Shown one piece after another: positions 2,485 through 5,710 of a DNA stretch of 64,000 nt (positions within the stretch are counted from its first letter, which is position 1; the number at the start of each line of letters is the position of its first letter). The position numbers were made by a program, and so were the translations under genes. The stretch is from Pseudomonadota bacterium. Its GTDB lineage: Bacteria > Bdellovibrionota > Bdellovibrionia > Bdellovibrionales > SG-bin7. The notes beneath the pieces are model-generated. The model saw nothing but the letters and a program-made list of their open reading frames with translations. It had not been told where the DNA came from and did no database searches. The DNA lies in contig JAWXAY010000029.1 of the NCBI GenBank assembly GCA_034439715.1, forward strand, positions 96,001-160,000, given 5' to 3'.

Positions 2485-2517
2485 TTTTCTCATCCTTGAA
2501 AATGGTTATTAACTGTA

Positions 2518-2850
2518 TTAGTCGCTAAACAAATGCTCAGACAGAATTTTATCTGCAAGTTCTTTTGAATCTATCGAATATTTACCGTCATCTATTAATT
2601 TTTGAAAATGAGCGACCTTGGCCTCATCAACGGCATTCATATTTGGTGTTGCCAACTCTTTTACTTTTAAAGTGTCTTGAGCTCGCTTAGAAATATCCAC
2701 GCGGGCATAGTCCCCACCCACATTATCGGTGGCCGCAGCGCCCTTGCCGTCTTTCTTATTTATGTTTATGCCCGAAGGTCCGACCTTACCTGATTTAGCC
2801 GAATCTTGAGACCCTAAAGAATCTCTAATTTTTGAGTTGTCCACTTTCAT
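2518..2850 (-). CDS. flgM: Anti-sigma-28 factor FlgM
   Basis: V.IS..AQ and VDEAKV..FQKLIDDGKYSIDSKELADKIL motifs; GGAGG SD before ATG 2850. Confidence 0.92.
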   Translation of the reverse strand: MKVDNSKIRDSLGSQDSAKSGKVGPSGININKKDGKGAAATDNVGGDYARVDISKRAQDTLKVKELATPNMNAVDEAKVAHFQKLIDDGKYSIDSKELADKILSEHLFSD

Positions 2851-2962
2851 ACGTTCCTCCCCCAAAAAACTTTAGAACCATTTAGTCATACCCTAAGGCC
2901 CAAAAGTTTCCAAGTTATCCTTACCTATTGTATCATACTGAGACAGAAAAAAGTTTAGGTTT

Positions 2963-3628
2963 TTAGCTGACCGGACTATAATTAATACTCCAGATCAGCG
3001 GTTTTTCAGCTGAAAAGCGACCAATTCTGTCACCGGGGGCCACTTTGGTGTCTGGCGGCAAACTGGAGACTGCTCCATTAAATGCTAGTGTCGATTGGGT
3101 TCCATTGTCGTGATCTAATTTTACAATACTAAGGCCCTCTGGACTTTGGAATGAAGACTGAACTTTTCCGGACCAGGGACTCAATATCTCCAAAGTTTTT
3201 TTGTCGAGCTCCTTATTGATGTAAAATGAGAACTGATCAACTTTGCCATCACCATTTTTTTTAATCTTTATATTTTGTTTTAAATCTTCTGGCAAAGGTC
3301 CCCGCGGTCTATCTAGTGGTTTTATATTCTTCATACCAAATTGGTTGCCATATCTTTCTTTAATTTGATTATAGATAAGATCTGATAAACCTACGCCACC
3401 CTTTCCGACCCACTGATCTACATACTCATCATCTAATTGGTTGCGAAAAATTTTTTCGCCCATTGAGGCCGGCATGAGCTCACTTTCACTGACAGTTTTT
3501 CTCATGGCACGCACCATTTCACGTAAAAATTGTGATTCATAAAGTTGGGCCGCTTTTAGCAACTTGGGATCTCGGGTGTCTTGCTGAGGCTGAGGCTGGG
3601 TTTTTGCTATTGAAGAAATGTCTCCCAT
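2963..3628 (-). CDS. flgJ: FlgJ rod-binding protein with degenerate C-terminal M23-like domain
   Basis: LLKAAQLYESQFLREMVRAMRKTV and GGVGLSDLIYNQI rod-binding motif; follows flgI. Confidence 0.88.
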   Translation of the reverse strand: MGDISSIAKTQPQPQQDTRDPKLLKAAQLYESQFLREMVRAMRKTVSESELMPASMGEKIFRNQLDDEYVDQWVGKGGVGLSDLIYNQIKERYGNQFGMKNIKPLDRPRGPLPEDLKQNIKIKKNGDGKVDQFSFYINKELDKKTLEILSPWSGKVQSSFQSPEGLSIVKLDHDNGTQSTLAFNGAVSSLPPDTKVAPGDRIGRFSAEKPLIWSINYSPVS

Positions 3629-3639
3629 CAGAGACACCC

Positions 3640-3855
3640 AGAAAAAAGAGGGGGAGTATGAGCTAGAGTTGTACGTGCATCCTGCACTTCACTCTTTAAT
3701 ACCGGTCTACTGCCAATACTTGGCTGGCGCTGAACCGTTGACTTTGTTTCCTGCGAGAAACTTTTGTCACCTAACCATCCTTGGTCACCAATCCCTAACC
3801 CATCATCCCCCGGATCCCAACACGTCCATGTGTCGGAAAAAATAACCGTTGATAT
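3640..3855 (-). ncRNA. Candidate structured CsrA/RsmA-binding RNA (CsrB/RsmZ-like sRNA or structured leader) between flgI and flgJ
   Basis: Hairpins CCGACAC-AUGGAC-GUGUUGG (3836-3817), UGACCA-AGGA-UGGUUA (3787-3772), GUGCA-GGA-UGCAC (3687-3675); ~20-bp closing stem 3811-3789 with 3671-3650, followed by U6. Confidence 0.6.
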
Positions 3856-3859
3856 CTTT

Positions 3860-3888
3860 ATTTTAATATTTTTTTGCTTCAATGCGAA
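3860..3888 (-). promoter_or_regulatory. Possible sigma70 promoter for the flgI-flgJ intergenic RNA
   Basis: TTCGCA-N17-TAAAAT just after the flgI stop; AT-rich context weakens the call. Confidence 0.35.
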
Positions 3889-3896
3889 ACAAATTT

Positions 3897-4901
3897 TCAT
3901 AAAATCTCTAAATCTCCCTGTAAAGCCCCGACCGCCTTGATGTTCTGAAGTATCGTGATCAGGTCTTTGGGAGAGACCCCTAGACCATTGAGCGACTTGA
4001 CAAGGCCTCCGACATTCGCATCGGGAGGAATGACCCCGACCCGTTCGGCATCTTGATCTTTCCCCTTTGCGACTTTTGCTCCACCAACTCTAACGCTTAA
4101 ATCTCCATGGCTTATGGCTACCTCACTAATTCTCACTCCTGATCCGATGACAACCGTTCCCGTTCTTTGATTAACCACAACCTTAGCTTTGACATCAGGA
4201 ACGACTTCAAGAGATTCAATCGTTGCTAACATCTCCACAACTTTTCCTTCAAATCTTTGGGGGACAATAACGTCAACCGTACCTGAATCTTTGGCGACTG
4301 CATATTTACCAGATAGATCACTATTAATGACTTTCACCATTCTTGCCGCCGTAGTAAAATCGGGGTTGTTAAGTGTCAGTCTAAACATTTTTCTTGAAGT
4401 AAAATCAGATGAGACGTCGCGTTCAATGATGGCGCCATTAGGAATTCTACCAACCGTATTGTGAGTGGCCCCACCACCTTCGCCGATTAAAACGGCTCCT
4501 TGCGCTACAGCATAAATTTCCTGATTAGCCGCTCTTAAGGGAGACTGGATGAGCGTGCCACCCTTTAAACTTGAGGAGTCGCCAACGGAGTTAACTGTAA
4601 TGTCAATATTGTTCCCCGCCCTCGCAAAGGAAGGGAGATTAGCTGTGATAATTACAGCAGCGACATTGGCGCTAGCGACTTCTTTGCCCGAAAGCTTCAT
4701 TCCCATTTTATCTAGCATTCGTGTGAAACTTTTTTCAGTAAACTCTGACTTCGAGTCACCTGTACCCGCAAGACCTACCACTAATCCATAGCCAACCAGT
4801 TGGTTTTCACGAACACCGCGAACATTGGCTATGTCTTTGAGGCGTACAGCCTGAGCTAAATCACACGAGATCATCAACAGTAAAAAATATATTTTTCTCA
4901 T
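3897..4901 (-). CDS. flgI: Flagellar P-ring protein
   Basis: RLKDIANVRGVRENQLVGYGLVVGLAGTGD signature. Confidence 0.97.
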   Translation of the reverse strand: MRKIYFLLLMISCDLAQAVRLKDIANVRGVRENQLVGYGLVVGLAGTGDSKSEFTEKSFTRMLDKMGMKLSGKEVASANVAAVIITANLPSFARAGNNIDITVNSVGDSSSLKGGTLIQSPLRAANQEIYAVAQGAVLIGEGGGATHNTVGRIPNGAIIERDVSSDFTSRKMFRLTLNNPDFTTAARMVKVINSDLSGKYAVAKDSGTVDVIVPQRFEGKVVEMLATIESLEVVPDVKAKVVVNQRTGTVVIGSGVRISEVAISHGDLSVRVGGAKVAKGKDQDAERVGVIPPDANVGGLVKSLNGLGVSPKDLITILQNIKAVGALQGDLEIL

Positions 4902-4903
4902 AA

Positions 4904-5710
4904 TTATAGGCCTCGCTTTACACTAACGACGTCAAAATTGGGCTCTAGAATAGCCTGAGAGCTCAGCCCGTCGTCATTAAAATCCTGTTCGCGCACAATT
5001 CCGGTTACAACGACGCGGTACTCTCGCTTGCCCAACATAAACGACTGGGTACCTTTTATTCGATAATTGCCATCAGGAAGTCTTTGGATAATTCTTGTCG
5101 GAACTAGTTCTAGGCCAAGATTGTTCTCATCCTTGTTGTTGTCGTCCTCATTTTTTGCAGTTGAGTTGTCTTTACCAGTATCTTTTTTATCCTTTGAATC
5201 TTTGGCGTCGGCCGTCTTATCTTTAGAGTCTTTGCTGTCTTTAGCATCTTTCTCCTTTTCTTTATCGTCGGCCTTACCGTCTTCGTCAGAGGCCAGTTTT
5301 CGCTGTGGAGCATCTATTTTTTTCAATAGCTTTTTAATAACAGTTACTTTGGAGTCCACTTGAGTGCGCCCCGAACCTTCAAGCTTTACATTTAAAAGGT
5401 CACCCACCAGACGAACTATGTTTTGCGAAAATAAATATGAACTTTGCCCTTCCATGATCCACAGCGAGCCTTCATTGGCTCCCACTCTAGCTTCACGTTC
5501 AAACTGATCCTTAGTCATTCTCGAATATTTACGTTGCTCACCTTTTTTGTAGTTGGGGTTATCGGCATAAGAAAATGGCTTTTGCGGACTCGCGTCTTCA
5601 ACAAAACCGTTGCCTCTCATTAAATTTTTAAGTTTCATGCCAAATCCCGCGCAGGCAGAGACCTGTAGAGAAATAATAATCAATATAAAAAGCTTTAAAC
5701 TTTTATTCAT
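4904..5710 (-). CDS. flgH: Flagellar L-ring lipoprotein with Lys/Asp-rich insertion
   Basis: Lipobox VSAC, GSLW, VGDLLNV, RLPDGNYRIKG, GIVR..D; lies between flgA and flgI. Confidence 0.88.
   Translation of the reverse strand: MNKSLKLFILIIISLQVSACAGFGMKLKNLMRGNGFVEDASPQKPFSYADNPNYKKGEQRKYSRMTKDQFEREARVGANEGSLWIMEGQSSYLFSQNIVRLVGDLLNVKLEGSGRTQVDSKVTVIKKLLKKIDAPQRKLASDEDGKADDKEKEKDAKDSKDSKDKTADAKDSKDKKDTGKDNSTAKNEDDNNKDENNLGLELVPTRIIQRLPDGNYRIKGTQSFMLGKREYRVVVTGIVREQDFNDDGLSSQAILEPNFDVVSVKRGL

Follow-up and report, generated by a model that had tools for sequence, protein, structure and literature searches.

The flgI–flgJ Junction

What occupies the gap between flgI and flgJ in the flagellar cluster of this member of the Bdellovibrionales, and how might it be related to CsrA? 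The window, i.e., the whole stretch of DNA analysed, has a length of 64,000 nucleotides. In the first-pass annotation, the gap was described as about 270 bp holding a structured RNA with GGA motifs in hairpin loops, a CsrA sponge or a CsrA-controlled attenuator. The measured distance agrees with this estimate and is 259 nt to the GTG or 268 nt to the ATG of flgJ. The gap is not free of ORFs: a 90-codon frame (3900–3628) overlaps both the flgI stop and the flgJ ATG. Past the element, the gene order is flgJ, flgM, flgN, flgK and then, just beyond the window, flgL, csrA, and fliW. The csrA–fliW pair expected downstream of flgL is thus present, and csrA lies about 4.3 kb downstream of the RNA in the same cluster. 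The RNA element has a single copy in the genome according to blastn and nhmmer, which rules out a repeat or a mobile element. The features of the locus are listed below in the order of transcription.

3897..4901, minus strand: flgI (P-ring), Pfam PF02119, E 1e-110; its TGA stop and the ATG that opens the bridge frame share the letters ATGA
3628..3900, minus strand: bridge ORF, 90 codons, from the flgI stop to the flgJ ATG, putatively translated
3876..3890, minus strand: imperfect palindrome that covers the −35 box and may be a regulator site; pattern present in 31 of 78 distinct upstream regions
3860..3888, minus strand: sigma-70-type promoter of the RNA, TTCGCA-17-TAAAAT, its use suggested by the orthologue
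3641..3854, minus strand: small RNA of about 210 nt, APsRNA1 orthologue, with ends placed according to the orthologue
3817..3836, minus strand: H0 hairpin, AUGGAC loop, the hairpin closest to the CsrA SELEX consensus; 9 of 9 pairs change on both sides
3789..3811, minus strand: 5′ arm of the closing stem P1 (predicted fold, alignment)
3772..3787, minus strand: H1 hairpin, AAGGAU loop; GGA in 70 of 78, unpaired 0.90–0.92
3739..3769, minus strand: H2 arm; GCAG invariant, GGA mostly paired; CAGGAAAC recurs in other orders
3701..3738, minus strand: H3 arm; GUA loop here, GGA in most relatives; 62% of cells paired
3675..3687, minus strand: H4 hairpin, AGGAU loop; 98.7% paired, 4 of 4 pairs change on both sides
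3650..3671, minus strand: 3′ arm of the closing stem P1 (predicted fold, alignment)
3641..3649, minus strand: U-rich tail after P1, likely terminator; APsRNA1 ends at the same place
2963..3637, minus strand: flgJ (rod-binding domain), PF10135; start GTG 3637 or ATG 3628

Structure of the RNA and Its Conservation

All elements named in the first-pass annotation were found at the coordinates claimed for them, including the H3 core (3724–3712) and the TTCGCA (3888–3883) and TAAAAT (3865–3860) hexamers. The fold drawn there is reproduced by prediction: H0 is followed by P1 of about 20 pairs, which encloses H1–H4, and then by the U-rich tail. The predicted fold energy for 3853–3641 is −71 kcal/mol (z −3.0), with 2 of 200 shuffles being equally good, and a second fold computation of the element gave a z of −2.7.

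An alignment of the flgI–flgJ gaps had been proposed as a check for covariation, and covarying stems were indeed found across the order. Over 81 distinct sequences, 81.6% of cells are paired, and the covariation is 0.375 vs. 0.169 for shuffled and 0.075–0.122 for slid partners, where the alignment (A2) was fitted to H0, P1, and H4, the remaining pairs were added from the consensus, and the kin in it are not independent. Every pair covaries in H0 and H4; there is almost no variation in the GGG/CCC core of P1 or in the core of H1, and H3 is poorly aligned. The copy at L101 (1134–1260) has a length of 127 nt and contains H0, P1, H1, the H2 motif, and H4 without H3. This minimal copy can be regarded as a natural minimal construct.

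GGA Motifs

The CA(N)GGA motif occurs 3–6 times per RNA. Its mean number in 81 RNAs is 4.7 vs. 0.88 in dinucleotide shuffles and 0.06 on the opposite strand, and the N position is free (U 98, A 66, C 16, G 8). GGA is present at H0 in 74 of the 75 rows with letters, at H3 in 61 of 76, and at H4 in 72 of 76. The probability of GGA being unpaired is 0.90–0.99 at H0, H1, H3, and H4, with 0.98–0.99 at H0. The conservation of GGA loops in relatives, on which the first-pass reading depended, is therefore borne out at four loop positions kept order-wide, three of which are intact in the genome studied, where the GGA of H3 is lost (GUA). As for the location of GGA in hairpin loops, the description holds for H0, H1, and H4; it fails for H2, the GGA of which is mostly paired (unpaired 0.51/0.17/0.17).

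The GCAG of H2 is the sole run that is 100% conserved (columns 131–134), and one clade (3 loci, genus g28) reads GCAGAAG there. Since the GGA of H2 is paired and this clade reads GCAGAAG, the most invariant motif of the RNA is not explained by CsrA. In the copies of genera g28 and g53, H0 is replaced by a short GGA-less hairpin. SELEX has given RUACARGGAUGU as the consensus for CsrA, with AC/GU paired around a six-base loop (PMC7652899), and H0 fits it, including the AC/GU pairing, save for U at the R position.

Within the genome itself the signal is modest. Three GGA hairpins per 200 nt is the maximum, but it is tied by two other segments, and the genome-wide count of GGA hairpins does not single out the RNA. 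Chance is excluded because of the conservation of the motifs and not by the signal in this genome alone.

Distribution in the Order and Comparison with RNA Families

According to sequence titles, 23 of 24 FlgI relatives belong to Bdellovibrionales or Bdellovibrionota. In a search of 61 genomes, the element was seen after flgI in all 30 best loci, one of which is cut by a contig end. The covariance model matches in 125 of 151 genomes of the order, a count that includes the 29 loci from which the model was built and which match by construction; one more RNA-bearing genome was missed by the strict filter. All 45 loci checked have the RNA between flgI and flgJ. Among the weak or missed matches, 18 of 20 loci are at the flgI–flgJ junction, and the other two are cut by contig ends. 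The RNA is absent from all nine genomes without flgI, and it was never found away from the flgI–flgJ junction.

Four flagellated genomes of genus g12 have flgI abutting flgJ, with no RNA and with csrA and fliW kept. A search for moved copies of the RNA in these four genomes gave no match better than E 0.13. The RNA is consequently dispensable for a flagellated genome. In the FlgI tree (FastTree, one outgroup), which gives no order of events across the phylum, the four genomes form one clade nested among the RNA-bearing ones, and the loss of the RNA in this clade was likely one event.

No match to an unrelated family came from Rfam, as the first-pass reading implied: the scan of 3300–4200 gave 0 matches at E ≤ 10. 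Scans of six related loci gave three matches far below the gathering score, none of them on the element, and the covariance models of the CsrB, CsrC, RsmX, RsmY, and RsmZ families did not match the element. The 6S and SRP RNAs are encoded elsewhere: the only match of the genome to 6S RNA (RF00013) is on C35 (59.6 bits), and its only match to SRP RNA (RF01854), on C94, scores 49.9 bits, which is under the large family's cut-off.

APsRNA1, Expression, and Transcript Ends

The RNA had been presented as new to the lineage. This claim holds in part: the transcript is already in print as APsRNA1 of B. bacteriovorus HD100, for which the available text of Karunker et al. 2013 (PMC3627812) gives no function and reports no homology outside B. 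bacteriovorus. CsrA and GGA have 0 mentions in the main text of that paper. APsRNA1 occupies positions 499,375–499,581 (207 nt), has no FliA promoter, and lies between flgI, which ends at 499,332, and flgJ, which starts at 499,642, on the same strand (PMC3627812). Read by eye, its printed sequence carries the same five GGA motifs in the same order, the same closing stem, and the U end. Judging by sequence, site, strand, and length, the RNA is an orthologue of APsRNA1. Where the published description covers B. bacteriovorus only, the present one is order-wide, extends to relatives across the phylum, and adds the bridge ORF. Another paper (PMC3818213), in its accessible part, deals with a different sRNA.

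The published RPKM of APsRNA1 is 50,451 in the attack phase and 3,181 in the growth phase, with flgI at 15/9 and flgJ at 7.7/41, where the order of the attack and growth columns is deduced from the attack-specific flagellin (PMC3627812). By these values, the attack-phase level of APsRNA1 is approximately 3,400 times that of flgI and 6,500 times that of flgJ. Library methods bias RPKM values for short structured RNAs, and both ratios are subject to this bias. For the organism studied, a 195-base metatranscriptome contig covers 3652–3824 and differs at two letters, both of which lie in an internal loop. Another contig agrees with the RNA in two parts and probably represents the copy of a relative. 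These data represent one sediment run of one study and consist of contigs only; no contig was found on the other 27 of 30 bins of 2501–5500, and contigs cannot show absence, ends, strand, or level. According to Figure S1 of PMC3627812, merRNA and APsRNA3, which lies upstream of a flagellin, also hold several A(N)GGA words.

The −10-like hexamer is present in 63 of 78 distinct upstream regions, a count without shuffle control, and a promoter scan found two sites vs. 1.3 expected. The mapped 5′ end of APsRNA1 is 5–6 nt past the matching −10 hexamer of the near-identical locus L031 (by eye). The orthologue accordingly has a start of its own, and its end is tight. The palindrome at 3876–3890, of the GTTTC-N5-GAGAC type, occurs at six other sites of the genome (contigs C10, C16, C49, C80, and C82 of G000), some of them upstream of FliA-like boxes. 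Of the seven sites, that of the RNA is the only one with a −10 at the same distance.

At the 3′ end, a scan found no classical terminator at the element. At least six U in the next nine bases after P1 were counted in 60 of 68 loci, and local 3′-end pairing within the last 40 nt in only 21 of 68. The median cost of freeing the 3′ arm of P1 is 7.6 kcal/mol. The distance from the U tract to flgJ varies from 0 to >300 nt. Long inverted-repeat insertions between the U tract and flgJ add 150–400 nt in L008, L031, L064, and L066, and in two of these loci, L064 and L066, the insertions leave the bridge frame open as far as flgJ.

Bridge ORF

The start codon of the bridge ORF overlaps the flgI stop (ATGA), and its stop codon overlaps the flgJ start (TGATG, 3628). 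Its start codon is upstream of the proposed start of the RNA, and the first GGA loop is located about 70 nt inside it. The frame crosses the RNA, and the peptide is not conserved.

The bridge frame is open past the RNA in 25 of 80 loci, and the other two frames in 5 and 3. When one locus per genus is taken, it is open in 12 of the 21 genera with an overlapping start, with 0.39 expected from shuffles, and the other frames are open in 1 of 39 each. In 43 of 80 loci at least one sense frame runs across the RNA (20.8 expected), and in 14 an antisense frame does (23.0 expected). The crossing sense frame is that of flgJ itself in nine loci, and for 15 of the 25 coupled frames the stop falls between −8 and +1 relative to a flgJ start. 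No open sense frame crosses the RNA in 37 of 80 loci; the bridge is hence not universal, and a model based on it leaves these loci unexplained. The bridge peptides, which are 79–213 residues in length, are read in different frames in different clades. This indicates that openness is kept and not the product.

Junction Forms Outside the Order

A survey of 60 genomes spanning the families outside the order was carried out by reading the flgI–flgJ gaps for related elements, with junction forms classed by eye unless counted. Both csrA and fliW were found in all of them, and in 61 of 61 with one more genome. There is no flgI–flgJ gap in nine loci of f17, four of f22, two of f29, one each of f27 and f32, and one of f30. 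In f21, 15 of 16 loci have, by eye, a short leader that carries one or two GGA hairpins at the start of flgJ. In f20, f24, f25, f28, f33, and f34, 14 of 19 loci contain a long multi-GGA stretch crossed by a bridge frame, and this stretch shares CAGGAAAC with H2. A long closing stem with a U tract was found in 4 of 4 loci of f15. All three loci of f31 (L177, L179, and L204) have, just after flgI, multi-GGA arms and a local terminator hairpin preceded by a TGGCA-N7-TGCA motif, which we take to be of the sigma-54 type. The f31 form is the most CsrB/RsmY-like of the forms seen. One Myxococcota locus has no element.

In the other orders, the codons of the GGA motifs are fixed (CAG GAA, GCT AGG ATG) in 10 of 10 loci shown. 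In L155, L158, L164, L165, L175, L187, L188, L190, L193, and L202, the bridge ORF opens with a W-x-D-F-x-L-D-D-x-x-G-P-like peptide. This peptide varies at synonymous positions and may possibly be a functional leader peptide. Beyond the order, model R1 gave weak matches in 7 of 127 genomes; of the eight loci inspected, only L126 is at flgI–flgJ, and the other seven were dropped, having no flagellar neighbours.

CsrA, FliW, and Flagellin Genes

The CsrA of the genome passes TIGR00202 and PRK01712. It has the RNA-binding R44 and N55, a CsrA residue of the FliW type (PMC13407953). Among the 125 RNA-bearing genomes, csrA was found in 121, fliW in 118, and both in 117; the eight exceptions are assemblies of 220–810 contigs. 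The CsrA of B. bacteriovorus represses a flagellin reporter (PMC13443453), and, as cited in the same paper, csrA has been implicated in predation by a transposon screen. In the genome studied, GGA hairpins were seen by eye near the starts of at least 4 of 7 flagellin genes.

The attack/growth RPKM of B. bacteriovorus is 41/3,077 for Bd0543 and 92/1,344 for flgM (PMC3627812). Bd0543 is probably fliW, from its position after flgL and its length. The timing is then opposed, with APsRNA1 peaking in the attack phase and the probable fliW in the growth phase. Given that flgM and Bd0543 are far above flgJ, csrA–fliW is probably not under the terminator of the RNA. Autoregulation of csrA through this terminator is likewise unlikely, the levels of Bd0543 being far above those of flgL.

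Possible Function of the Element

The interpretation of the element as a CsrA sponge or attenuator is supported by the conserved motifs and structure, and the published abundances favour the sponge over the attenuator as the main role, the bridge ORF supplying the cis part. We consider it likely that the free RNA acts as a CsrA decoy and that translation of the bridge carries the upstream mRNA past the long-range terminator, coupling flgJ to flgI. The internal promoter just after flgI would make the RNA, and transcription would stop at the U tract. Transcripts from this promoter would have no bridge start codon, so that P1 could close and they would be terminated as a free decoy, whose GGA loops may bind several CsrA dimers and free CsrA-repressed mRNAs, such as those of flagellins. 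On transcripts from upstream, ribosomes would restart at the flgI stop, cross the element, keep P1 open, and hand over to flgJ. As the RNA peaks in the attack phase and fliW probably in the growth phase, the two CsrA antagonists would take turns between the phases. CsrA binding, termination at P1, and bridge translation are what we infer here. Several observations stand against this reading: the invariant GCAG is not explained by CsrA, the GGA of H3 is lost in the genome studied, the four g12 genomes do without the RNA, 37 of 80 loci lack an open sense frame, the position between flgI and flgJ is fixed, which a pure trans decoy would not require, and P1 is a long-range stem and not a standard terminator hairpin, with a GGG/CCC core that barely covaries.

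The fixed position in 45 of 45 loci, with no moved copy in the four RNA-less genomes, would be expected if the element were mainly a checkpoint in cis. In such a case, CsrA on the hairpins of the flg mRNA would block the bridging ribosome or favour P1 and shut off flgJ, and the free RNA would be a by-product of termination. The selection on the bridge ORF and the f21 loci, where 15 of 16 have, by eye, only the short leader and its one or two GGA hairpins before flgJ, also fit a cis role, and E. coli iraD, which CsrA controls by way of a coupling ORF, offers a precedent (PMC5574718). Nevertheless, this explanation seems unlikely to us. An orthologue with its own mapped start, about 3,400 times as abundant as flgI and 6,500 times as abundant as flgJ in the attack phase, would be a costly by-product; flgM and Bd0543 are far above flgJ, csrA–fliW probably being outside the terminator; and the U tract may be from 0 to >300 nt away from flgJ. 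It is quite improbable that the main partner of the RNA is not CsrA but another RNA-binding protein, or the 30S subunit recognising the Shine–Dalgarno-like AGGA loops, with the invariant GCAG loop as the key site. This would account for GCAG being the sole fully conserved run, with its GGA paired, and for the g28 and g53 copies that have a GGA-less hairpin in place of H0. However, the signature described for CsrA is CA(N)GGA(N)G carried by short stems, the N being free, csrA itself is about 4.3 kb downstream in the same cluster, and all 13 named loci with csrA have, by eye, the same type of hairpin over the ribosome site of that gene.

That the gap is simply a gene of a small protein with an incidental RNA fold is very hard to accept. 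A 90-codon ORF coupled at both ends, the sense frame open in 43 of 80 loci vs. 20.8 expected, and, in other orders, the W-x-D-F-x-L-D-D-x-x-G-P-like N-terminal motif with synonymous changes are in its favour. Still, within this order the reading frame of the motifs changes from clade to clade, the products having 79–213 residues, 37 of 80 loci have no open frame, the GGA motifs in other orders have fixed codons (10 of 10 shown), and the abundant transcript starts downstream of the start codon.

Returning to the decoy with a translated bridge, a broader scheme can be put forward, although it is tentative and, taken as a whole, possible rather than probable. One stretch of DNA would have two uses: it would encode a dedicated CsrA decoy RNA, the first in a lineage with FliW, and on the operon mRNA it would be translated as a bridge and so disable its own long-range terminator. 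The RNA and FliW would share the control of CsrA, split by attack and growth phase. The graded forms at one junction across the phylum, namely, the short GGA leader, the translated multi-GGA stretch, and the free terminated RNA under sigma-70- or sigma-54-type promoters, would illustrate how a decoy arises from a CsrA target site independently of CsrB/Rsm.

Comparison with Known Systems

The CsrB, CsrC, RsmX, RsmY, and RsmZ RNAs have a local intrinsic terminator hairpin at the 3′ end. The RNA described here resembles them in its GGA hairpin loops, its abundance, the U-rich 3′ end, and a cognate CsrA (PMC7652899, PMC7366521). Transcription of the CsrB/Rsm RNAs is driven by BarA–UvrY or GacS–GacA. 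These two systems are anti-correlated with fliW (PMC7652899). Unlike the CsrB/Rsm RNAs, the present RNA has its arms inside a long 5′–3′ stem, with no local terminator found, and it lies within an operon, is crossed by a reading frame, and occurs in a host with FliW and an N55-type CsrA.

An mRNA is reported to act as the RNA antagonist in C. jejuni. The CsrA–FliW–flagellin switch of Bacillus subtilis, Campylobacter jejuni, and Geobacter sulfurreducens is similar to the present system in the location of csrA–fliW after flgL (PMC7652899, PMC13407953), in CsrA with N55 and a C-terminal extension, and in GGA sites in flagellin leaders. Unlike here, the accessible accounts describe these systems as having no CsrB/C-type sRNAs. 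The accessible text of a 2026 Geobacter paper states that no such sRNA is known there (PMC13407953), that of a 2020 review states that joint action of FliW and an sRNA on CsrA in any species is still to be determined (PMC7652899), and the two mechanisms have been called mutually exclusive (PMC7366521).

The iraD leader of E. coli is alike in that the stop of a short ORF overlaps the next start and several CsrA sites are present (PMC5574718). At iraD, CsrA covers the ribosome site of the ORF itself, whereas here the sites are in the body of the ORF. Unlike the iraD ORF, the bridge ORF has a coupled start as well as a coupled stop, and a free abundant RNA is made from the same DNA.

The transcript is known already; its function, the RNA family, and the bridge ORF were not found in the published literature searched, mostly without subscription papers. 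The orphan attack-phase RNA gains a likely function, and an RNA family missing from Rfam is defined. Since the candidate RNA is named in a culturable and genetically tractable predator, joint control of CsrA by an sRNA and FliW becomes testable. The locus also suggests how a terminated sRNA can sit within an operon without cutting it.

Variants of the csrA–fliW Locus

Among L033–L055 and L130–L145, a GGA hairpin placed immediately ahead of the csrA ribosome site (45 nt upstream of csrA) was seen by eye in all 13 named RNA-bearing loci that reach csrA; by eye, it is missing in the four RNA-less flagellated genomes and degenerate in the genome studied. This hairpin suggests CsrA autoregulation. 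In 11 loci (L130–L138, L142, and L143), csrA is outside the flg cluster, with fliW alongside in four, and N55 is lost in five of the seven that have no fliW in the fetched stretch. In G014:C34 and G047:C102, both from genomes of genus g14, fliW matches in two pieces, which may reflect a split gene, a frameshift, or an insertion.
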